NCBI GenBank assembly: GCA_043819515.1 | Contig: JBDRES010000069.1 | Coordinates: forward strand, 35,722 to 99,721 | Reading direction: 5' to 3' | Source of the DNA: a bacterium | Lineage (GTDB): Bacteria; Zixibacteria; MSB-5A5; GN15; FEB-12 | DNA length: 64,000 nucleotides | In this document: positions 37,171 through 62,665 of the stretch, piece by piece | Position numbering within the stretch: position 1 is the first letter of the stretch | Layout of the letters: each line of letters starts with the position of its first letter | Program-made: the position numbers and the translations under genes | Notes under the pieces: generated by a model | Databases searched by the model: none | The model's input: the letters and a program-made list of their open reading frames with translations, nothing else | What the model was told of the DNA's origin: nothing

Positions 37171-38079
37171 ATGAAGGTACTAAAATTCAGTCTCTTGGTA
37201 GCCGGCTTGGTTGTCACCATGAATGCGTCCGGAGTCGCTTCCGATGCCGGTCTGGCTCTGCTTACCAACGAGTATTCCGCCCGACCGGCGGGGATGGGTG
37301 GCGCGGCAGTTTCGATTCTGTCCGATCCCAACGCCATTTGGTACAACCCGGCTGCGGCGGTCGGACTGGACACGTTTACGGCTTCATTCGGCCATACGGT
37401 TTTCTGGGAGAATATCCGCTTCGAGTCCGGTTGCTTTGGAATCGGCTTGTCGCCCAGATTCTACCTGCATGGTGGCATTCGCATGGCCACCATCGACGAT
37501 ATCGAGCAACGGGGTGAAGTACCGACAACCCAACCGGAAGCGTTGTTTGGATCGCACGATATCTCCGGCAAACTAGGTTTGGCTTATCGGATGAGCGACG
37601 ACGTCGCTGTAGGGGCGGCCATTGGATGGATGTTTGAGGAAATCGAATCCTGGCGCGGGTCGGAGTTCAACGTCGATGTGGGTGTGAATGTCACGCCACG
37701 TATCGAGGGCCTCACCCTGGGTGCCGCCGTCACCGGCCTGGGCGGCGACATGGCTATCACCAAAGAAGGGACTATCGGTTCGCGCGAAATCCCCTTGCCG
37801 ACAACCTATCGATTCGGCGGTTCATATACTTATCGCTGGCTGCGCGGCGCGGCCGATTTGGTTTATCTCGATGACCAGGCCCACGCCCACCTGGGAGTCG
37901 AGGGCACTGTGTCAAAAGAACTCAATCTTCGCGCCGGCTACATGTCCGGCTATGATACTCGCAACATCACGGCCGGAGCGTCATTCGCATATCGCAACGT
38001 GCGCGTCGACTATGCCTTCCTGCCGTATTCTGATAATCTCGGAACAAGTCACCTGTTTAACGTAACGTTTAGTCTTTAG
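37171..38079 (+). CDS. PorQ/PorV-like outer-membrane beta-barrel protein (paralog of upstream gene)
   Basis: Signal peptide plus SARPAGMGGAAVSILSDPNAIWYNPAA motif. Ends ..NVTFSL. Tandem paralog of the upstream barrel. Confidence 0.5.
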   Translation: MKVLKFSLLVAGLVVTMNASGVASDAGLALLTNEYSARPAGMGGAAVSILSDPNAIWYNPAAAVGLDTFTASFGHTVFWENIRFESGCFGIGLSPRFYLHGGIRMATIDDIEQRGEVPTTQPEALFGSHDISGKLGLAYRMSDDVAVGAAIGWMFEEIESWRGSEFNVDVGVNVTPRIEGLTLGAAVTGLGGDMAITKEGTIGSREIPLPTTYRFGGSYTYRWLRGAADLVYLDDQAHAHLGVEGTVSKELNLRAGYMSGYDTRNITAGASFAYRNVRVDYAFLPYSDNLGTSHLFNVTFSL

Positions 38080-38098
38080 AGAGGAAGAGACACACACG

Positions 38099-39217
38099 AT
38101 GGCCAAGTATCGCATTGCCTGGATGCCTGGTGATGGCGTTGGTAACGACGTCATGGAGGCAGCAAAAATCGTCCTGGACAAACTTGCCCTCGACGCTGAC
38201 TATCCCCATGCCGATATCGGTTGGGAATTCTGGAAAACCGAAGCCAACCCGCTGCCGGACCGGACCGTCAAGCTGCTTAACGAAGTTGACTGCTCGCTTT
38301 TTGGAGCCATCACTTCAATGCCCAAAGAAGAGTGCGAAAAGGCGCTCATTCCCGCATTGCAGGGCAAGGGGCATGTTTATGCCTCGCCGATCGTGCGGTT
38401 GCGCCAGGAGTTTAATCTCCGAACCAACCTGCGGCCGTGCAAAGCCTACCCCGGCAACCCGCTCAATTACAAAGAGGGCATCGACCTGATGGTCTTCCGC
38501 GAGAACACCGAGGACCTTTATGTCGGCGTCGAGTTCCACCCTCTGCCCGATGAAGTCCGCGACGTGCTGAAGAAGCATCACAAAAAGATGGCGCGCTTTG
38601 ACGGTACCGCCGGCAAAGACATCGCCGTCTCGCTGCGCATTAACACCCGTCTGGGCTGCCGCAACATCATCACCGACGCCTTCGAGTACGCTAAAAAGAC
38701 CGGCCGCAAGAGTGTGACCGTGGTCGAGAAACCGAATGTCGTGCGCGAGACCTCCGGGCTGATGGTGCGCACGGCTCGCGAAGTTGCCAAGAACTATCCG
38801 GGCATCGAACTCTGGGAGACCAACATCGACGCCATGTGCATGTGGCTGATCAAGAACCCGCTCGACTATTCGGTTCTGGTGACAACCAACATGTTCGGTG
38901 ATATCGTCAGTGACCTTTGCGCGCAGCTAGTCGGTGGTCTCGGTTTTGCCGCTTCGGGCAACATCAGCGACAAGCTGGCGGTGTTCGAGCCGACCCACGG
39001 GTCCGCGCCGAAATACGCCGGTCAGTACAAAGTCAACCCGATGGCTATGCTGTTGACGACGCGGATGATGCTTGAATGGCTGGGCGAGAACGATATGGCC
39101 GAGCGACTCGAAAACGCTATCGCGGCCGTCATCAAAGAAGGCAAGGTCCGCACCTACGACATGGGCGGTACTTCGACCACTCTCGAAGTCGGCCAGGCGG
39201 TCGCAGACAAGCTGTAA
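38099..39217 (+). CDS. Isocitrate/isopropylmalate dehydrogenase family protein (NAD(P)-dependent beta-decarboxylating dehydrogenase)
   Basis: Family signature NMFGDIVSDLCAQLVGGLGFAASGNI and a Rossmann-like N-terminus IAWMPGDGVGNDV. 372 aa. Confidence 0.75.
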   Translation: MAKYRIAWMPGDGVGNDVMEAAKIVLDKLALDADYPHADIGWEFWKTEANPLPDRTVKLLNEVDCSLFGAITSMPKEECEKALIPALQGKGHVYASPIVRLRQEFNLRTNLRPCKAYPGNPLNYKEGIDLMVFRENTEDLYVGVEFHPLPDEVRDVLKKHHKKMARFDGTAGKDIAVSLRINTRLGCRNIITDAFEYAKKTGRKSVTVVEKPNVVRETSGLMVRTAREVAKNYPGIELWETNIDAMCMWLIKNPLDYSVLVTTNMFGDIVSDLCAQLVGGLGFAASGNISDKLAVFEPTHGSAPKYAGQYKVNPMAMLLTTRMMLEWLGENDMAERLENAIAAVIKEGKVRTYDMGGTSTTLEVGQAVADKL

Positions 39218-39225
39218 TCTGAATC

Positions 39226-39260
39226 GTCATTCCTGCGAAAGCAGGAATCCAATCTTGAAG
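39226..39260 (-). repeat. REP-like palindromic hairpin repeat, copy A1 (reverse orientation)
   Basis: TCATTCCTGCGAAAGCAGGAATCC AATCTTGAAGG. This is the reverse complement of the GGATTCCYGCTTTCGCRGGAATGA unit seen at 41638, 41790 and 42023. Confidence 0.7.
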
Positions 39261-39289
39261 GCAGGCCTCGAAAGGGGCCTGCTTTTTTT
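39260..39289 (+). terminator. Rho-independent terminator after dehydrogenase gene
   Basis: GCAGGCC-TCGAAAGG-GGCCTGC stem-loop followed by T7. Confidence 0.8.
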
Positions 39290-39367
39290 GTGATTGACTA
39301 AGGTGACGGTGTCTGCTATGAATAGCATCGGAGGTATAACAGAACTTAAGCAGGACAGGGTTGCGTC

Positions 39368-40045
39368 ATGGTGGACAAGATACCATTCAATGCCTATGAC
39401 TTTTTCGGTTACTTGGCGCCCGGTGCTATTGCGTGTGTCAGCCTCGACTATGTGCTGGGTCTGGGTATAGTGCTCGTGAAGGATCCGGGTGCGTATTTCA
39501 CGGTGCTTATCGTTATGGCGTTCTATTTCGTGGGGCATGTGGTGGCTGCTGGATCTGCTCTGGTGTATGGCAGGGTAGTCGCACGCATTGTGTACGGTGA
39601 CTACTATGAATACCTGTTTTCTGATGATCGCATGACAATGTGGCGACGACTGACCGCCTGCGCTCCGTTGCCTGCGGAGATCCAAACCGCAGTTTTGAAA
39701 CAGGCGCGTGGTGTTGCAATAGAGAAGGCTGGTCAAGCCCTATATCAATTTGCCTGCAGCGTGGCGCGGCGATCCCCTGAATACGGCCCGAGACTGAGAG
39801 TGTTTCTGAACCTGCTTGGCTTTTCCAGGAATGTGTCAGCGGCATTTGCGGTAGCAGGGATTGCTTTCGCATTGTCGTCGTATGGGGGTGGTGGCAGCAC
39901 ATCGATCGGATGGATGACAGCTGCAGCGCTGTTTGCATCAGCCGTGATGTTGGTGCGTTTCATGCGATTTTATCGTCTCTATGGAGTCGAAGTGTTCTCA
40001 GCGTTGGCCTACCACGATGATCGGAAGGATGACGCAGCTTGCTAA
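39368..40045 (+). CDS. Hypothetical 4-TM membrane protein (low-GC insert, gene 1)
   Basis: 225 aa with four hydrophobic helices and a GGGGS stretch. Local GC is clearly lower than the flanks. Stop overlaps the next gene start. Confidence 0.5.
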   Translation: MVDKIPFNAYDFFGYLAPGAIACVSLDYVLGLGIVLVKDPGAYFTVLIVMAFYFVGHVVAAGSALVYGRVVARIVYGDYYEYLFSDDRMTMWRRLTACAPLPAEIQTAVLKQARGVAIEKAGQALYQFACSVARRSPEYGPRLRVFLNLLGFSRNVSAAFAVAGIAFALSSYGGGGSTSIGWMTAAALFASAVMLVRFMRFYRLYGVEVFSALAYHDDRKDDAAC

Positions 40046-40833
40046 TACAGATCTTCAACGTGGGGCATGGATTTTGTGCGTTGGTTCGTGCGGACAACGG
40101 CAACAGCTTGTTAGTCGACTGCGGCTCGGGTGGACCAAACGACTTCAAGCCATCCAGGTACCTACCATCGATAGGCGTTACAAGGCTTCAAAAACTGGTG
40201 ATCTCCAATTACGATGAAGACCATATGTCAGATTTGGCGGAGTTGCGGCGCAGCGTGCACATAGAAATACTAGCCAAAAACTGCAGCATTAATCCGGACC
40301 AGTTGGAAAAGCTGAAAGCCGAATCAGGTCCTATCGGCAGTGGCATGAGCTCGCTCTTGGATATGCTCCACATGTATACGAGCCCTGTGCTGGCGGAGCC
40401 TGACTTCGCTGGATGTGGCTTTCGATTCTACCACAATCAGTATCCAGGATTCCAGGACACCAATAATCTGTCGCTCGTCACTTTTGTGAAGTACGGCACT
40501 CACCAAATCGTCTTTCCTGGAGACCTTGAGACCGCTGGGTGGGATAAGCTGTTAGAAAGATCTGACTTCAGGGCCGACTTGGCGTGCACGACGGTGTTCG
40601 TTGCATCCCACCATGGTAGGAGATCCGGGTATTGCCCTGAAGTCTTCGGCTACTGCAGCCCCGGGATTATAATCGTTTCAGATTCCGGAATCCAATATGA
40701 CACCCAAGTGGTCCCATATGATGCGCATGCGCGCGGGATATCCCTTGGTTCGCAAAGGAGGTACGTCTATACAACGCGCAAAGACGGAGATATTACTCTA
40801 CGATACTTTCCTGACGGTCGATGGGAGATATAG
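40039..40833 (+). CDS. Metallo-beta-lactamase-fold hydrolase with degenerate metal-binding motif (low-GC insert, gene 2)
   Basis: Beta-strand-rich N-terminus LIQIFNVGHGFCALVRADNGNSLLVDCGSG. The canonical HxHxDH motif is replaced by SNYDEDHMSDL, and a later VASHHGRRSGY resembles the ComEC-type MBL SHHG motif. TTG start overlaps the upstream stop by 7 nt. Confidence 0.6.
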   Translation: MLIQIFNVGHGFCALVRADNGNSLLVDCGSGGPNDFKPSRYLPSIGVTRLQKLVISNYDEDHMSDLAELRRSVHIEILAKNCSINPDQLEKLKAESGPIGSGMSSLLDMLHMYTSPVLAEPDFAGCGFRFYHNQYPGFQDTNNLSLVTFVKYGTHQIVFPGDLETAGWDKLLERSDFRADLACTTVFVASHHGRRSGYCPEVFGYCSPGIIIVSDSGIQYDTQVVPYDAHARGISLGSQRRYVYTTRKDGDITLRYFPDGRWEI

Positions 40834-40876
40834 TCCAATGTTCGGTGATTGCCCCTGTCTGCTTGAGCCTCACCCC

Positions 40877-41482
40877 CTACCCCCTCGGCCTCTTTAGCCT
40901 TTCCTCAATGATGAAGCGCGCGCCGCGGACGGCCAGGCCGCGGTGGGAGACACGGTTCTTTTCTTCGAGGGTCATCTCCGAAAACCGTTTGTCGGCGTTG
41001 GGATAATAAAACACCGGATCGTAACCGAACCCCTGTCGGCCGACCAGGTCCTCGGCGATGTAGCCCTCAGCCTTGCCCTCGACCGTGTCGGTCGTGCCGT
41101 CGCCCCAGTCGATACAGATCACACAGCGGAAGCGTGCCGTGCGCTTCTCGGGCGGGATACCTTTGAGATCACTCAGCAGTTTGCGGTTGTTGTCTTCGTA
41201 AGTGCAGCCGGGTCCGGCGTAGCGCGATGAGAATACGCCCGGCGCGCCGTCGAGAGCGTCGACCTCCAGCCCGCTGTCGTCGGCCAGCGCCGCGCAGCCG
41301 CAAAAGGCCGCTATCTCATGCGCCTTGATGAAGGCGTTCTGTTCGAGAGTGGTGCCGGTTTCGTCCGGGTCGGGAAAAGAATCAAAGTCGGCGCTAGTCA
41401 GTATCTCGACCGGCAGGTCGGCCAGGACCTCTTTGATTTCCCGGATCTTGTCTTTGTTATTCGTCGCGAGTACGATTCTCAT
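40877..41482 (-). CDS. rdgB: Non-canonical purine NTP pyrophosphatase (RdgB/Ham1 family)
   Basis: MRIVLATNNKDKIREIK...FGYDPVFYY family motifs. Start chosen at M12 (MRIVLATNN). The alternative start is 41515. Confidence 0.85.
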   Translation of the reverse strand: MRIVLATNNKDKIREIKEVLADLPVEILTSADFDSFPDPDETGTTLEQNAFIKAHEIAAFCGCAALADDSGLEVDALDGAPGVFSSRYAGPGCTYEDNNRKLLSDLKGIPPEKRTARFRCVICIDWGDGTTDTVEGKAEGYIAEDLVGRQGFGYDPVFYYPNADKRFSEMTLEEKNRVSHRGLAVRGARFIIEERLKRPRG

Positions 41483-41637
41483 AGATGGCCCTTGTCTCTG
41501 TTTGTTGAACCGCAAGATATGCGTGGCCGGATCGGGAGCAAGTGAGATATTATGGTGTCACCCCGGCGTAGGCCGGGGTCCAGACATTGGTGGATGCGCA
41601 TTGCTCACGGATATATCTCGGCGCGGCCAAGTTGCCT

Positions 41638-41668
41638 GGATTCCCGCCTCCGCGGGAATGACGAATGT
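41638..41668 (+). repeat. REP-like palindromic hairpin repeat, copy B1
   Basis: GGATTCCCGCCTCCGCGGGAATGACGAATGT. Confidence 0.75.
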
Positions 41669-41742
41669 TGAAGGGCCTGAAAGTTGCGGATACGCTGAAC
41701 CGAGTTTGTGGGTGACAGACTCAGACGGTAGTATGGCGGTTG

Positions 41743-41778
41743 TCATCCCTGCGGAAGCAGGGATCCAATCTTGAGGCC
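41743..41778 (-). repeat. REP-like palindromic hairpin repeat, copy A2 (reverse orientation)
   Basis: TCATCCCTGCGGAAGCAGGGATCC AATCTTGAGGCC. The flank AATCTTGARG is shared with A1. Confidence 0.7.
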
Positions 41779-41789
41779 GAACGAAGAAT

Positions 41790-41820
41790 AGATTCCCGCT
41801 TTCGCGGGAATGACGAATGT
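41790..41820 (+). repeat. REP-like palindromic hairpin repeat, copy B2
   Basis: AGATTCCCGCTTTCGCGGGAATGACGAATGT, with its last 29 nt (GATTCCCGCTTTCGCGGGAATGACGAATGT onward) identical to those of copy B3. Confidence 0.8.
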
Positions 41821-41835
41821 AAGGGAACCTTCAGT

Positions 41836-41912
41836 CTCTGTAGGGCGAAGCCGTCTTCGGACCCGCCGGACTCGCAATGGCAGGTCTGAAGACAGATCTG
41901 CCCTACACAAAC
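41836..41912. repeat. Long imperfect inverted repeat (about 22-nt arms, 17/22 complementary) within the REP-rich intergenic region
   Basis: TGTAGGGCGAAGCCGTCTTCGG ... CTGAAGACAGATCTGCCCTACA. Confidence 0.5.
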
Positions 41913-42022
41913 CGCCTCGTGATAGTGGGGAGAAACGGCGGATCTCACTTCGTCGAGATCCGAGAAAGACTAAGTCTGTCAGGTCCCTAAGGGGATCTGA
42001 CCTACAAATCCACAAGAAGAAC

Positions 42023-42053
42023 GGATTCCCGCTTTCGCGGGAATGACGAATGT
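42023..42053 (+). repeat. REP-like palindromic hairpin repeat, copy B3
   Basis: GGATTCCCGCTTTCGCGGGAATGACGAATGT. Confidence 0.8.
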
Positions 42054-42064
42054 AGAGAAGGCTC

Positions 42065-42916
42065 TCAATACCTACTAATGTCCACCCGGGTGATGCCGTC
42101 GACGATTTGGCCGAGAAAGCGTGTGGCGACGGTTGAAAATCTCTCCGGCACATCGCTGACGAAGAACTTATGTTCGCCCATCGGCGCACGACCGCCGCCG
42201 TTGGCTTGGGTCGTGGCGGGGGAGAGGAGGCCGGCTTCGACGAGCTTCTTGCGCGCGAAGCGGGCGGTTTCCTCGCCACTGTCGATAAGCGTGACCTTGT
42301 CGCCCATAACCTCGGCGATGATGTGCTTTAGCAGCGGGTAGTGCGTGCAGCCCAGCACCAGCGTGTCGACCTCGACATCGAGCATGGTTTGCAGATACTC
42401 CCTGGCGATCAGCCGCGTAGCATCTCTATCGATGTAGCCTTCTTCCGCCAGCGGCACGAACAGGGGACAGGCCAACGAGAAGATTTTTGATTTGGCATCC
42501 AACGAGTGAATTATGCGGGCGTAGGCATTGGATCCGATGGTGGCGTTGGTGCCGATGACGCCGATGCGTCCATTATCTGTCTTTGCGACGGCTGCCACGG
42601 CGCCGGGTTCGATGACGCCCACCAGTTCGATAGGATAGTCACCCTTGATTTCATCCAGTGCTGCTGCCGAGGCCGAGTTGCAGGCGCAGATGATATACTT
42701 GACCTTATGTTCAATCAAGAACGCCACGTCCTGACGCGTGAACTGGGTGATGATTTCCTTCGAACGCCCGCCATAGGGCGTGCGGCCCTGATCGCCGAAG
42801 TATATGACGTCTTCGTGAGGCAGGATTTTGAAAATCTCCCGGGCCACCGTCAAACCGCCGACACCGGAATCAAAAATCCCGATGGGAGCGCTACTCTTGA
42901 CATCATCTTTGGTCAT
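42065..42916 (-). CDS. murI: Glutamate racemase
   Basis: IGIFDSGVGGLTV, YFGDQGRTPYG, ACNSASA and GCTHYP motifs, including both catalytic Cys regions. Confidence 0.9.
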   Translation of the reverse strand: MTKDDVKSSAPIGIFDSGVGGLTVAREIFKILPHEDVIYFGDQGRTPYGGRSKEIITQFTRQDVAFLIEHKVKYIICACNSASAAALDEIKGDYPIELVGVIEPGAVAAVAKTDNGRIGVIGTNATIGSNAYARIIHSLDAKSKIFSLACPLFVPLAEEGYIDRDATRLIAREYLQTMLDVEVDTLVLGCTHYPLLKHIIAEVMGDKVTLIDSGEETARFARKKLVEAGLLSPATTQANGGGRAPMGEHKFFVSDVPERFSTVATRFLGQIVDGITRVDISRY

Positions 42917-42933
42917 ATTGTATCTGCCGGTGA

Positions 42934-44448
42934 TCAGTTGTTCTCATACTTTTCCTTAAAGCGCTTGATGGCCTTGTAGAGCGATTCGGCCACCTGCTTT
43001 TGGAAACTGTCGGACTTAAGGAGTTTTTCTTCGTTCTTGTTCGAGATAAATCCGGTCTCGATCAGCACCGACGGCGTGAAAACTTGGTTGAGCACAAAGA
43101 ACCCGGCCTGATCAACACCCCGTGCCGGTATCTTGAGCTTGCGATTCAGTTCCTTGGCGACCATCATGGCAAAATCGTGCGATTCCTCCTGGAATTCGGT
43201 CATGATCATATCATTGAGAATGGTCAGGATCGGATCGAGTTCCAGATCGTCGGCAGTGTTGGCATCATCATCGGTTTCTTCAGATGTCCCTTCCTCACGC
43301 AGGAAGAATGAATTCTCAAACTGGGCGACGGCTCGGGCGGAGTCGTTTTTCGCCGGCGCCAGGAAGAAGACATTCCACCCGCTAACCCGCTTCTTGGGAG
43401 AGGCGTTGGCATGGATGGATATGAACAGATCGGCTCCGGCGTTGTTGGCGATTTCGGCCCGCTTCTCAAGCGAGATATAGGTGTCCCGATCGCGGGTGGT
43501 AACAATCCTGAATTGCTTGTCGGTACGCATCAGCTTGGCCAGCTCGCGCGAGATGGCCAGGACAACATCCTTCTCGCGCGTACCCCCCTGACCGATAGCA
43601 CCGTAGTCGCTGCCGCCGTGGCCCGGGTCGATCACGATAACGTCGATCTTGTCATCCGGTCCGACAATCTTGGGAGCCGTATCCTCCGGATTGAGATTGA
43701 AGTCGGCGTCGGCTATAGAGATTTGGATACGCGGCGGGTCGTAGACAAGTTTGTGTTGCCAGGTGCCGACGTTCTTTCGCAAGCGCATCGATATCTGTCC
43801 ATTGCCGGCTGACTGATGGGCCGTAAGCTTGTACATGTAGCGCCGGTCTTTGCGAGCCAGAATCTGGCTGGTGTTGATGCGAGCGTCGGTGATGGAAATA
43901 TTGAGCCAGTTGCCCTCGGTCAGAAAGACATCGTACCCCAGGGCGCCGGTCAGGAGTACTTCAATCAGCAAACCGTTGGCCTTGCCGTTGACGGCCAGGT
44001 CCAGGACATTGAAGTACTCGGAGTCGATGCGCAACACGTCGAGCATTTTGTCATACATAATGGTCTGACGTTGGACGCCATTCAGAAACGGAATGAACGT
44101 CTGGGCCGGGACAAAAAGTTGGCCGTCACGCAACTGGGCCGGGAAAGTCTGATTATAGACCTTGTCGTTGACTTTGAAGAAGGGGGATCCAAGAACAAAG
44201 TCAAAACGACAGGCGTCGCCAACGTAGCTGATCTTGTGGCCCATCAGTTCCCAGTCCAGGCGGCCACCCAGTACCTCGGCTATCTCCGAGAGTGACACGT
44301 AGGTGATTTCATGGTGCTGAAATGAGGACAGCTTCGATGTCCCGCCCGCCGTCACGATCTCGGTGGCCTCGGAGATCGATATGCCGGCGCCCAGCAGCAA
44401 AGCCAGGATAAGCGCGGCCAGGCGATATTGTCCGTCGAATCTCATCAC
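42934..44448 (-). CDS. N-acetylmuramoyl-L-alanine amidase (Amidase_3, AmiC-like with N-terminal AMIN-like domain)
   Basis: Signal peptide, an N-terminal beta-rich domain, then the VIDPGHGGSDYGAIG catalytic Zn motif and SIHANA. Confidence 0.8.
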   Translation of the reverse strand: MMRFDGQYRLAALILALLLGAGISISEATEIVTAGGTSKLSSFQHHEITYVSLSEIAEVLGGRLDWELMGHKISYVGDACRFDFVLGSPFFKVNDKVYNQTFPAQLRDGQLFVPAQTFIPFLNGVQRQTIMYDKMLDVLRIDSEYFNVLDLAVNGKANGLLIEVLLTGALGYDVFLTEGNWLNISITDARINTSQILARKDRRYMYKLTAHQSAGNGQISMRLRKNVGTWQHKLVYDPPRIQISIADADFNLNPEDTAPKIVGPDDKIDVIVIDPGHGGSDYGAIGQGGTREKDVVLAISRELAKLMRTDKQFRIVTTRDRDTYISLEKRAEIANNAGADLFISIHANASPKKRVSGWNVFFLAPAKNDSARAVAQFENSFFLREEGTSEETDDDANTADDLELDPILTILNDMIMTEFQEESHDFAMMVAKELNRKLKIPARGVDQAGFFVLNQVFTPSVLIETGFISNKNEEKLLKSDSFQKQVAESLYKAIKRFKEKYENN

Positions 44449-45858: not shown

Positions 45859-46449
45859 ATGAGAGAGATACGTCGATATAGCAATCGTCGGTTTTACGAC
45901 GCCCGAACCTCCAGCACGCTGACGCTACCGGAACTGGGTTGTCTGGTTCGTCGCGGGGCGAACCTCAGAATTGTTGATGTGCCGACCGGCGGCGACATTA
46001 CCCTTGAGGTTTACGGCAGAATCCTTATCGCGGAGTTGGCCGGGCAGGCCGACGGCACTAAGTCGACAAAATTACTGAAAGATACCATAATGCAAACAGG
46101 AGAAGCGTCCATGTCCATTCTAAAAAATACCATTCTGGCATCAATCGGTGTCATTCAGGTCACTAAAGCTAAGGCCGAGAAGGTCATTGATGATCTGATC
46201 AAGAAGGGTGAACTGGATAAGTCAGACCGCAAGAAGGCGGTCATGGAACTTCTGGAGAAGGCTGAAAAGTCGACGGCCAAATTCACCGACAAGGTGAGTA
46301 GTCAGGCCGGAAAGCTTCAGAAGGAAGTTGTTTCGGCTGTGCAGAAACTCAATCTGGCCAAGCAGACCGATCTAAAAAAACTCGAGGGCAAGGTTGATCG
46401 TCTGAACAAGGCAATCAAGAGTCTGACCGAGAAACTTGACCAGCAGTAA
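45859..46449 (+). CDS. PhaR-like (polyhydroxyalkanoate synthesis repressor family) DNA-binding protein with C-terminal coiled-coil/phasin-like region
   Basis: N-terminus IRRYSNRRFYDARTSSTLTLPELGCLVRRGANLRIVDVPTGGDITLEVYGRILIAE matches my recollection of the PhaR DNA-binding domain (KYPNRRLYDT.TS.Y.TL...G.D.T). The C-terminal part is Lys/Glu-rich coiled coil. Confidence 0.55.
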   Translation: MREIRRYSNRRFYDARTSSTLTLPELGCLVRRGANLRIVDVPTGGDITLEVYGRILIAELAGQADGTKSTKLLKDTIMQTGEASMSILKNTILASIGVIQVTKAKAEKVIDDLIKKGELDKSDRKKAVMELLEKAEKSTAKFTDKVSSQAGKLQKEVVSAVQKLNLAKQTDLKKLEGKVDRLNKAIKSLTEKLDQQ

Positions 46450-61006: not shown

Positions 61007-61654
61007 ATGAGAAGAGAAATTCCACTATTTATCACAGCGGTTGTCGGCATCGGTTTTGTCCTTCAGTACTTCATACCCCATTTCCCGTTCGGCAATCTGA
61101 GCAACTGGTTCTCCGACTGGTTTTCGATTGTCGGCGCCTGCGCGATCATTCTCGGCGCTCTCAACCTGCTCAAGGTGTCGGCGGAGAAGGCGTACAAGAA
61201 GCAAAGCGATTGGGGCTACGCGGTCGTAATCATCCTGTCATTCCTGATTATCGTATACATCGGTTTGAGTTCCGGTAAGGGATTCCGCGATACCGCCGGA
61301 TGGTCCTGGATGTACAACTTCGTTTACATACCGCTTTCCGCGACGATGTTTTCAATTCTGGCCTTTTTTGTGGCCTCCGCTTCCTATCGCGCTTTCCGCG
61401 CCAGAAACTTCGAGGCCACACTCCTTTTGGTCGCTGCCTTTTTTGTGATGTTGGGACGGGTACCGTTCGGCGATGTGCTTTCCGGATTCATGCCGGAAGG
61501 GGCGCGTTTGTCGGACCTGGCTTCCTGGGTTATGAACTATCCTCAGGCGGCCGGTCAGAGGGCCATCATGATTGGTATCGGCCTCGGCATTGTCTCGACT
61601 TCGCTGAGGATTATCCTCGGGATTGAGCGATCTCACATAGGTGGGGGGAAATAG
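61007..61654 (+). CDS. Polytopic membrane protein (cassette gene B)
   Basis: 215 aa with about 6 predicted TM helices. No motif recognised. Confidence 0.5.
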   Translation: MRREIPLFITAVVGIGFVLQYFIPHFPFGNLSNWFSDWFSIVGACAIILGALNLLKVSAEKAYKKQSDWGYAVVIILSFLIIVYIGLSSGKGFRDTAGWSWMYNFVYIPLSATMFSILAFFVASASYRAFRARNFEATLLLVAAFFVMLGRVPFGDVLSGFMPEGARLSDLASWVMNYPQAAGQRAIMIGIGLGIVSTSLRIILGIERSHIGGGK

Positions 61655-61657
61655 ATT

Positions 61658-62665
61658 ATGAATACACGAGTCAAAGAGATTATCGCCCTCATCGCCATCG
61701 CTGTTTTTTGCATAGTCTTCTATTTCGGCAAGGTCAGTGGCTGGGAACCGATTGAGTTCTCTCCGCTGGTGTCGACTGTTGTGATAGGTCTCCTGGGTTT
61801 GTCCATGATCTGGATCCTTATCCTGACTCTCCAGGGGAAACTCATCGAACGGCGGGTCGTATTCCTGTATGTCGGCGTGGCGGTGTCGCTGCCGCTGTTC
61901 ATGACCATTACTCAGAAGATCGTGGTCTCGCCGGAAGTGACTTCGCTGCACCAGGCGATGGAGGCACTCCAGCCGGGATCGCGAGTGTTGGTATCGTTTG
62001 ACTATGATCCCCCTTCGGCTCCGGAGTTGCAGCCGATGGCCGAGTCGGTGCTGCGGTTTTGCTTTGAGCGCGATCTCAAGGTGATCATCATGGGGTTGTG
62101 GCCACAAGGACCGGATCAAGCCAATCTGGCTTTGGACAAGGTGCTGGCCGAGGAGACTATCGCGGCCAAGGGCCTGGAGTATGGAGTTGATTACGTCAAT
62201 TTGGGCTTCCAGACGGGCAATGAATTCGTGATTCAGCGCATGGGGACGAGTTTCAAATCGATGTTCCCGACCGATTACGCCGGTACCCTGTACGATGAAC
62301 TTCCGCTGGTGCGCAATGTCAAGAATTTCTCCAACATTGATTTCGGTTTCAACCTCTCTTCCGGTTTCCCGGGATCGGTGGAATGGGTGCAGATTGCCGT
62401 CGATCGTTTCGGGATGCTTCTGGGCATTGGCAACACGGCGGTTCAAGCGCCGGTTATGTATGCTTACCTTGATGCGGGACAGCTGACCGGAATCCTGGGA
62501 GGAATGAGCGGTGCCGCCGAGTTTGAGAAAGCCTGTAAGATAGCCGGCAAGGCGACCAAGTTTATGCTCTCACAGTCTTTTGCGCACATGGTCGTCATCG
62601 CGTTTGTAATCATCGGAAACATCGCCTTCTTCATCGGCGGTCGAAAAACAGCCCTGGGCAAGTAG
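61658..62665 (+). CDS. Membrane protein with large extracytoplasmic domain between N- and C-terminal TM helices (cassette gene C)
   Basis: 335 aa: three N-terminal TM helices, a soluble domain of about 200 aa and a C-terminal TM helix (MVVIAFVIIGNIAFFIGG). Topology resembles ABC-transporter auxiliary / GldG-like proteins. Confidence 0.5.
   Translation: MNTRVKEIIALIAIAVFCIVFYFGKVSGWEPIEFSPLVSTVVIGLLGLSMIWILILTLQGKLIERRVVFLYVGVAVSLPLFMTITQKIVVSPEVTSLHQAMEALQPGSRVLVSFDYDPPSAPELQPMAESVLRFCFERDLKVIIMGLWPQGPDQANLALDKVLAEETIAAKGLEYGVDYVNLGFQTGNEFVIQRMGTSFKSMFPTDYAGTLYDELPLVRNVKNFSNIDFGFNLSSGFPGSVEWVQIAVDRFGMLLGIGNTAVQAPVMYAYLDAGQLTGILGGMSGAAEFEKACKIAGKATKFMLSQSFAHMVVIAFVIIGNIAFFIGGRKTALGK

Follow-up and report, generated by a model that had tools for sequence, protein, structure and literature searches.

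In a window of 64,000 nt from the genome of a Zixibacteria bacterium of the lineage FEB-12 (GenBank assembly GCA_043819515.1, contig JBDRES010000069.1, positions 35,722 to 99,721 of the forward strand), two adjoining genes, which we call A and B, lie between housekeeping genes. From the sequences of these genes and of their relatives, we consider the chances evenly balanced that the pair is a horizontally acquired, coupled module of the PDC-M48 type, in which B would be a nuclease effector and A its membrane regulator, and which would serve in defence against phages or invading DNA. Gene A (39368-40045, + strand) starts with ATG and encodes a protein of 225 amino acids (aa); gene B (40039-40833, + strand) starts with TTG and encodes a protein of 264 aa. 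The two genes share 7 nt (TTGCTAA, 40039-40045, + strand), in which the TTG of B and the stop codon of A both lie, and this points to translational coupling. An AAGGA Shine-Dalgarno sequence is present 9 nt 5' of the TTG of B, and the starts of both genes agree with the alignments of their homologues. A preliminary description of this DNA had proposed two open reading frames (ORFs) on the same strand with a 7-nt overlap and a TTG start, and on these points we are in full agreement with it.

The assignment to PDC-M48 comes from B. This protein matches the PDC-M48B model of PADLOC-DB (PDLC04674) with E = 1.6e-71, residues 1-254 of 264 being aligned with model positions 1-257 of 270, and it can be regarded as a full-length member of that family. 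PDC-M48 is one of 145 phage defence candidates (PDCs), which were nominated from cassettes embedded in BREX, DISARM, type I restriction-modification (RM) or Hma systems (Payne et al. 2024, bioRxiv 10.1101/2024.01.29.577857). It appears in Supplementary file 8 of the same study as CAS_00157, FAM_01875>>FAM_00178, with 63 RefSeq instances (10.1101/2024.01.29.577857). The arrangement of the genes is also alike, with the membrane protein gene upstream and the metallo-beta-lactamase (MBL) gene downstream, abutting and on the same strand. The difference lies in the partner: canonical PDC-M48A proteins have about 160 aa and a motif SSYNxFNYLLPGV, whereas A, with 225 aa, belongs to another family and carries the motifs YDFFGY and YGFSRN. 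As judged by these sequence matches, the cassette is a variant of the catalogued candidate PDC-M48. The earlier suggestion of a defence or effector module is strengthened by the PDC-M48B match and by the defence-rich neighbourhoods described below, but the accompanying statement that the pair could not be matched to a named system has to be revised, since a catalogued candidate exists.

The AlphaFold model of B is confident (pLDDT 94.4), and among solved structures Foldseek ranks the ComEC MBL domain first (9ic4, E 3.9e-15, TM-score 0.69, 22% identity). The phosphocholine esterase Pce/CbpE comes second (E 5e-10), and IntS11, CPSF73 and RNase J are more distant. At the level of profiles, the B family matches six ComEC chains (to 3.6e-11) and CbpE at only about 1e-3. 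Similarly, the best NCBIfam match of B is ComEC/Rec2 (TIGR00361), with 23.8 bits, which is below the cut-off of 190. Other matches are weak or partial, namely to the MBL-type LmuA model of PADLOC (residues 3-69, 4e-4) and to Pfam Lactamase_B (residues 8-72, 1.6e-6). More than 425 homologues of B were found in a collection of 5.8 billion proteins, the nearest non-self sequence being 56% identical; three of them (P0065, P0089 and P0099) carry a precomputed PF23023 label beside Lactamase_B or replacing it. In PHROGs, B matches phrog_14556 (2.3e-11) as well as a tail-protein family, phrog_7043, in its MBL-like part (8.5e-7). B has no signal peptide and no transmembrane (TM) or other hydrophobic segment, and its first beta-strand starts right at the N-terminus; for these reasons we infer that it is cytoplasmic.

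The active site of B was compared with that of ComEC. Motif II of B, N57-Y-D59-E-D61-H62 (40207-40224, + strand), corresponds to the HxDxDH of the ComEC type but has Asn in the place of its first His, and motif III, D140-T-N-N143 (40456-40467, + strand), has Asn where His is usual, as in ComEC. They are followed by motif IV, G161-D162 (40519-40524, + strand), with the bridging Asp, and by motif V, S190-H191-H192-G193 (40606-40617, + strand). With NYDEDH and DTNN, B thus departs from the canonical di-zinc MBL signature, made of HxHxDH and the motif III His. In ComEC's C-terminal domain, Asp replaces one motif II His and Asn replaces the motif III His (Silale et al. 2021, PMC8579336); this extracytoplasmic domain binds Mn2+ and is a Mn2+-dependent nuclease, and in S. 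pneumoniae a motif II His of ComEC is also an Asn (PMC8579336). In the profile alignment with the B family, motif II of the Moorella ComEC reads HPDADH. When 34 sequences of the B family were aligned, D27, C28, D59, D61, H62, D140-T-N-N143, G161-D162, H191-H192-G193 and S214-D215 were invariant, H10 was nearly invariant and position 57 was either N or H. By this comparison, NYDEDH with DTNN is a ComEC-type site with one further His-to-Asn change, and not a degenerate one. Such strict conservation of the motifs suggests that B is an active enzyme, probably a Mn-type phosphodiesterase or DNase. The NYDEDH and SHHG motifs named in the preliminary description are confirmed (residues 57-62 and 190-193), and its guess of a ComEC-like protein is upheld by the match to 9ic4. 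It had, however, taken the metal motif for degenerate and B for a possible pseudo-enzyme, a proposal that we reject because D59, D61 and H62 as well as motifs III to V are invariant in the 34 homologues.

B and ComEC have further properties in common: the ComEC C-terminal domain, which is the closest solved fold, has 266 aa and B has 264 aa, and both share the motif II Asp, the DxNN of motif III, GD and HHG. In contrast, B is a stand-alone protein, fused neither to a competence channel nor to an OB domain, it is predicted to be cytoplasmic whereas the ComEC domain is extracytoplasmic, its first motif II His is an Asn, it remains far below the cut-off of the ComEC family, and its distribution is sporadic and accessory. 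ComEC-like MBLs are established as defence effectors in the Hachiman, AVAST, Lamassu and DRT contexts; there they are DNase proenzymes with two inserted loops, at which a trypsin-like protease, their partner, cleaves them (PMC12799240; 10.1101/2025.09.03.673762). B shares the ComEC-like MBL fold with HamM, LmuA and RTasMBL, with a weak sequence similarity, but no trypsin-like or caspase protease is adjacent to its gene, and its sole partner is the 4-TM protein A. In addition, B has 264 aa compared with 322-345 for the models of these proteins, and lacks the approximately 60-80 residues needed for two inhibitory loops; the absence of the loops was judged by the lengths and by the alignment, in which both ends of B align to the ComEC domain and the middle segment is of similar length. 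Since B and ComEC's C-terminal domain are of equal size, which leaves no room for inhibitory loops, the coupled partner would be its obvious regulator.

Protein A is predicted to be all-helical (pLDDT 91.9). Its long helices span residues 9-30, 42-76, 139-175 and 178-224, and a small insert, also helical, occupies residues ~79-135. Its hydropathy profile shows TM segments at ~12-33, 42-66 and 180-203 and a weaker one at ~150-170. The loop 66-140 contains 10 Lys/Arg, which suggests that it is located in the cytoplasm. On the basis of this model, A is a 4-TM inner-membrane protein, the insert of which is probably cytoplasmic; the four long helices and the hydrophobic segments agree with the 4-TM protein announced in the preliminary description. 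The conserved motifs of A are PFxxYDFFGY, AYxxGHVVA, FLNLYGFSRN and RYLKFYRLY. A has no match in Pfam or NCBIfam and no structural relative in the PDB, and its sole match in PADLOC is a weak one to the PDC-M48A model PDLC04670 (1.8e-4), over residues 8-83 (TM1-TM2) and 73 of the 164 model positions. In PHROGs, residues 125-217 of A match phrog_12528, a family of unknown function (3.6e-7). While a word-indexed search gave 29 relatives of A, with identities of at most 38%, an exhaustive profile search gave 414 clusters (50% identity) at E<=1e-30 and 1376 at E<=1e-10, the members being nearly all 215-235 aa long. The A family is therefore large, and it has no model in Pfam or NCBIfam and no good model in PADLOC.

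The association of B with a membrane protein is not specific to the window. In all of eight long contigs carrying a B homologue, an unannotated gene of 150-250 aa abuts the MBL gene. We extended this census to 80 further metagenome loci, retaining the ORFs of at least 60 aa that end within 60 nt of the start of B (58 after removal of redundancy). We observed that 47 of these 58 ORFs encode multi-TM proteins, which fall into four classes. The family of the window's A is the most frequent (25 of 58; 215-235 aa), followed by a second class of 4-TM proteins of 150-170 aa with the motif YCLRGVYLN...WYYIRP (12 of 58) and by class 4, of about 250 aa (6 of 58); in this census none of these three matched a PADLOC model. 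Class 3, the canonical PDC-M48A of about 160 aa, was found in only 4 of the 58 and matches the PADLOC models at 1e-60 to 1e-68. The remaining ORFs encode a second MBL paralogue (3 of 58) or other proteins (8 of 58), including small HNH-like ones. Typical gaps between the partner gene and B range from -20 to +13 nt, and the abutting layout recurs in dozens of unrelated contigs, as expected for the tight operon that had been proposed. Conversely, the three A homologues located on long contigs are all directly followed by an MBL gene, two clearly of the B family and one more divergent.

When the profiles were compared with each other, homology was found between the A family and class 4 (probability 94.5%, E 8e-8), which have a YGFxRN motif in common, and class 2 is unrelated to the A family, whose similarity to class 3, determined with hhalign over TM1-TM2, is marginal (probability 30%, E 5.6e-4). 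A neighbour-joining tree of the B proteins, which is poorly resolved, clusters partially by partner class with obvious mixing, and this pattern suggests repeated exchange of the partner. At two loci (L107:815-1075 and L163:7703-7966) a basic, HNH-like ORF of about 87 aa takes the place of the membrane protein 5' of the B homologue. In addition, a second, divergent MBL paralogue often lies beside genes of the B family (L004:11000-11818, and the upstream ORFs in L100, L121 and L166), and such paralogues match the LmuA (PDLC03854) and RTasMBL (PDLC03805) models of PADLOC; their positions suggest tandem MBL variants of the system.

We then consider the site occupied by the pair. To its left lies the gene of an isocitrate/isopropylmalate-type dehydrogenase, Iso_dh (38099-39217; Pfam Iso_dh, 9e-85), and to its right, in convergent orientation, rdgB/Ham1 (40877-41515; Pfam, 7e-62), and the genes that flank the pair are Iso_dh, rdgB, murI and an amidase gene. 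The dehydrogenase is 82-87% identical to that of metagenome-assembled genomes (MAGs) labelled Zixiibacteriota, and the exact A and B proteins are recorded in one NCBI MAG (locus tags ABIE70_). Relatives share a syntenic block comprising the genes of a large surface protein, of two outer-membrane proteins, of Iso_dh, of RdgB, of MurI and of the amidase. Their Iso_dh-rdgB spacers were compared with positions 39218-40876 of the window, and A and B were absent from this orthologous site in all four syntenic Zixibacteria relatives. In the first (L010, 7117-7411) the spacer has 296 nt and is empty apart from a terminator equivalent to that of the window's Iso_dh; in the second (L011, 7117-8098) it has ~950 nt and no convincing gene; in the third (L012, 7221-8184) it holds two GNAT acetyltransferase genes and in the fourth (L015, 2277-2714) one ORF of 145 aa. 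The absence of the pair from these four relatives indicates that it is an accessory insert, and the spacer, whose content varies from one relative to the other, looks like a small integration hotspot.

The composition of the pair is also atypical. The GC content is 0.532 for A and 0.509 for B, the mean of the window being 0.559 and the flanking genes having 0.576 and 0.599. The GC content at third codon positions is 0.553 for A, the lowest of the 46 long ORFs, and 0.589 for B, compared with 0.663 +/- 0.043. Scored against the codons preferred by the remaining ORFs, A and B give the two lowest codon-usage likelihoods of the 46 (z -2.9 and -2.6), and the largest tetranucleotide deviation of the 64 kb is that of the 1.5-kb window from 39251 (z 4.0). 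The deviation is thus real but modest. The lower GC content and the unusual codon usage noted previously are confirmed to this extent, but not the excess of GAT, TAT and AAA codons that went with them: compared with the rest of the window, the pair has a lower fraction of GAT (0.42 vs 0.51) and an equal one of AAA (0.38 vs 0.38), and of the three codons TAT alone is slightly raised (0.55 vs 0.46). Taken together, the empty sites in the four relatives and the atypical composition support the view, already expressed in the preliminary description, that the pair is acquired accessory cargo. Elsewhere in the window, low values were also observed for an ORF of 364 aa without Pfam match (61352-62446, - strand; third-position GC 0.564) and for the gene of a PhaR/phasin-like regulator (45859-46449, + strand; GC 0.50).

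On the left, the insert is bounded by two features. A palindrome resembling repetitive extragenic palindromic (REP) elements (GTCATTCCTGCGAAAGCAGGAATCCA..., 39226-39258, + strand) lies immediately 3' of the Iso_dh stop codon; it is a resident feature that marks the left edge of the insert. The intrinsic terminator of Iso_dh (39257-39286, + strand), with a 13-bp stem including 7 G-C pairs and a T-run, forms the left boundary. A weak putative promoter of the cassette was found by eye at 39294-39322 (+ strand; TTGACT, 17 nt, TATGAA), but a scan for consensus promoters did not call it, position 6 of its -10 hexamer not being T. Allowing at most 3 mismatches, we found the REP pattern 4 times in the window, where 0 matches were expected, and five further REP-related copies lie at 41557-42054, in the rdgB-murI spacer of 550 nt. 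Within the 64 kb, this REP family is confined to that spacer and to the site 3' of Iso_dh. The array on the right is separated from the pair by rdgB, a resident gene of the syntenic block, so that REP elements bound the pair on the left only; the preliminary description, which had the pair enclosed by REP hairpins, was right for the left side, where the REP element is accompanied by the terminator, and not for the right side. It had also placed the insertion at a REP-marked site. Neither the Iso_dh-rdgB spacers nor the other loci examined in the relatives contain a REP copy of the window's family, and no direct repeats and no integrase flank the pair; insertion mediated by REP elements is therefore unsupported. 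No RNA element of Rfam was detected in 38000-43000.

The surroundings of B homologues in other genomes are mobile or defence-like. On the eight long contigs the other neighbours differ each time and include IS66, integrases, PemK, ParDE, TacA, DNA methyltransferases and a SLFN/HATPase_c_3/Metallophos cluster. One homologous pair (L008) lies between serS and rpmB/ftsZ and is, as in the window, a two-gene insert among housekeeping genes. In the neighbourhood of 18 B loci, 139 ORFs match 377 PADLOC families at 1e-5, whereas in that of 17 Iso_dh loci, used as a control, 128 ORFs match 9 families; these counts, a crude measure, are of families and not of proteins, and the redundant RM models of PADLOC inflate them, but the contrast remains large. 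The families found near B include type I/II methyltransferases, specificity subunits, MADS, PD-Lambda-5, E1-E2 and LmuA/RTasMBL-like MBL paralogues. Relatives of B are nearly absent from viruses, with one weak partial match in IMG/VR (2.9 million viral contigs) and four weak matches (23-28% identity) in GenBank phages; a phage origin of the pair was rejected, as only these weak matches were obtained in the two collections. Relatives of B were found on 19 plasmids. On the plasmid pPNAP01 of Polaromonas naphthalenivorans (L090:4515-9550), the gene of a B-like MBL (39% identity; PDC-M48B, 3e-49) is one of four clustered genes, the others encoding a ThiF/E1 adenylyltransferase and two hypothetical proteins; this block resembles the ubiquitin-like '6A-MBL' operons. 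E1-E2, ThiF and JAB matches are also present near other B loci.

The constancy of the MBL next to interchangeable partners, the lack of gating loops in B, the tight coupling and the defence-rich neighbourhoods lead us to assign the role of sensor or regulator to the membrane protein and that of effector to the MBL. The defence reading is also favoured by an analogue of like architecture, Guanyin, which is described below and whose protection against phage was validated by experiment (10.1101/2024.12.27.630466). While the genes and their arrangement are observed, we infer the nuclease activity, the contact between the two proteins, the trigger and the defence role itself. B would be a cytoplasmic Mn2+-dependent DNase or phosphodiesterase effector of the ComEC type, and A its 4-TM partner of the inner membrane, produced in a fixed ratio to B by translational coupling. 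The cytoplasmic face of A probably binds B and would hold it tethered or silent. A membrane-proximal cue, such as the entry of phage DNA, a perturbation of the envelope or a phage protein, would release or activate B, which would then degrade the invading DNA and possibly that of the host too. A more specific version of this scheme is proposed tentatively, and we regard it as distinctly less probable than the general one: the pair would control a ComEC-like DNase in a new manner. Whereas HamM-type MBLs lose their inhibitory loops by proteolysis, here an exchangeable protein of the inner membrane would restrain an ungated nuclease and detect infection at the envelope, for example while a phage genome enters. 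The nuclease would act at the place of DNA entry or close to it, like a ComEC mirrored onto the cytoplasmic side, the A family then being new membrane immune sensors or anchors.

Beyond the inflated family counts mentioned above, several observations weigh against a coupled defence module. PDC-M48 is a candidate only, and it is unnamed in the main texts of the literature searched. The pair of the window is solitary among housekeeping genes, without a local defence island. With a match of only 1.8e-4 between A and PDC-M48A, PADLOC might not call the system. As the B tree clusters only partly by partner class, co-evolution of the two proteins is not demonstrated. Concerning B itself, the first ligand of motif II is Asn and not His, its activity is deduced from conservation only, and a non-DNA substrate is possible since Pce, a phosphocholine esterase, ranks second among its structural relatives.

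This last point leads to one of two rival explanations that we consider rather improbable, to the same degree, namely that B is a Pce-like phosphodiesterase without nuclease activity, the substrate of which would be a phosphodiester in the head-group of a lipid, in a precursor of the envelope or in a small molecule; A would recruit B to the membrane, with a physiological role or a lethal one in defence. Besides the rank of Pce/CbpE among the structures (E 5e-10) and its profile match of ~1e-3, a membrane partner would suit a membrane-bound substrate, and a precedent is offered by Guanyin, a system made of the 3TM protein GuyA and the Pce-like MBL GuyB, which protects E. coli from phage and requires the catalytic His (Shu et al., bioRxiv 10.1101/2024.12.27.630466). 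Guanyin sits in type I-C cas operons between cas3 and cas5c, where it is CRISPR-supervised and repressed by crlRNA, and GuyB was proposed by its authors to cleave phosphate esters of essential molecules (10.1101/2024.12.27.630466). The two systems, likened here by description only, both consist of two genes encoding a small multi-TM protein and a Pce/ComEC-like MBL hydrolase, but the pair of the window lies between housekeeping genes and not in a cas operon. Against a Pce-like activity, ComEC is clearly closer to B than Pce by structure and by profile, the motif II Asp and the motif III Asn are features of ComEC that Pce does not have, and B has neither a choline-binding module nor an export signal. 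The characterised defence MBLs of this clade are all DNases, and that of Hachiman did not cleave p-nitrophenyl (pNP)-phosphocholine. The other explanation of the same low rank is that the pair is a selfish addiction module resembling toxin-antitoxin (TA) systems, B being a DNase toxin neutralised by A, and that it persists by post-segregational killing with no dedicated anti-phage role. The tight coupling of A and B, their sporadic occurrence, the frequency of PemK, ParDE, TacA, transposases and integrases beside the homologues, and one homologue inserted, likewise on its own, among housekeeping genes would all fit such a module. However, antitoxins are usually RNAs or small, labile proteins of the cytosol and not 4-TM membrane proteins, and a conserved nuclease with a swapped class of partner is more typical of sensor-effector defence modules; besides, TA and abortive-infection roles can coexist.

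The roles of the two proteins might also be reversed, which we hold to be somewhat less probable still: A would be the killing effector, a pore or depolariser, and B its regulator, which might for example break down a nucleotide signal or process a trigger made of nucleic acid. Small TM effectors are indeed common in defence systems, some family members bear the PF23023 label mentioned above, and the conserved polar residues D11, R154 and N155 of A adjoin TM helices. Nevertheless, A contains no recognisable ligand-binding domain, it is around a constant B that unrelated classes of partners are swapped, and no signal-producing enzyme (cyclase, TIR) was found beside the pairs in the loci examined. 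Finally, the resemblance of B to ComEC and the combination of a membrane part with an MBL part, as in ComEC itself, could evoke a remnant of competence, that is a split or fragmentary ComEC-like apparatus for DNA uptake. This proposal is largely refuted and we give it very little credence: syntenic relatives lack the pair, B reaches 23.8 bits against the TIGR00361 cut-off of 190, A has no similarity to competence domains and no structural relative, B has no export signal although the ComEC C-terminal domain is extracytoplasmic, and the contexts of the homologues are mobile or defence-like.

The putative defence module formed by a PDC-M48B-type MBL and a membrane partner may be more common than current annotation indicates. 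Indeed, the PDC-M48A models cover one of at least four partner classes, and the least common one among the close relatives sampled (4 of 58), so that most instances, including that of the window, are likely missed by PADLOC. ComEC-like MBL nucleases have recently been shown to be widespread effectors in bacterial immunity, and the only control known for them is proteolytic activation. In the present cassette and in hundreds of relatives, an ungated form of this nuclease is joined to membrane proteins that can be exchanged. If the pair is a defence system, a dangerous DNase could be licensed in a second way, through the membrane, and a large, uncharacterised family of membrane proteins would gain a function.

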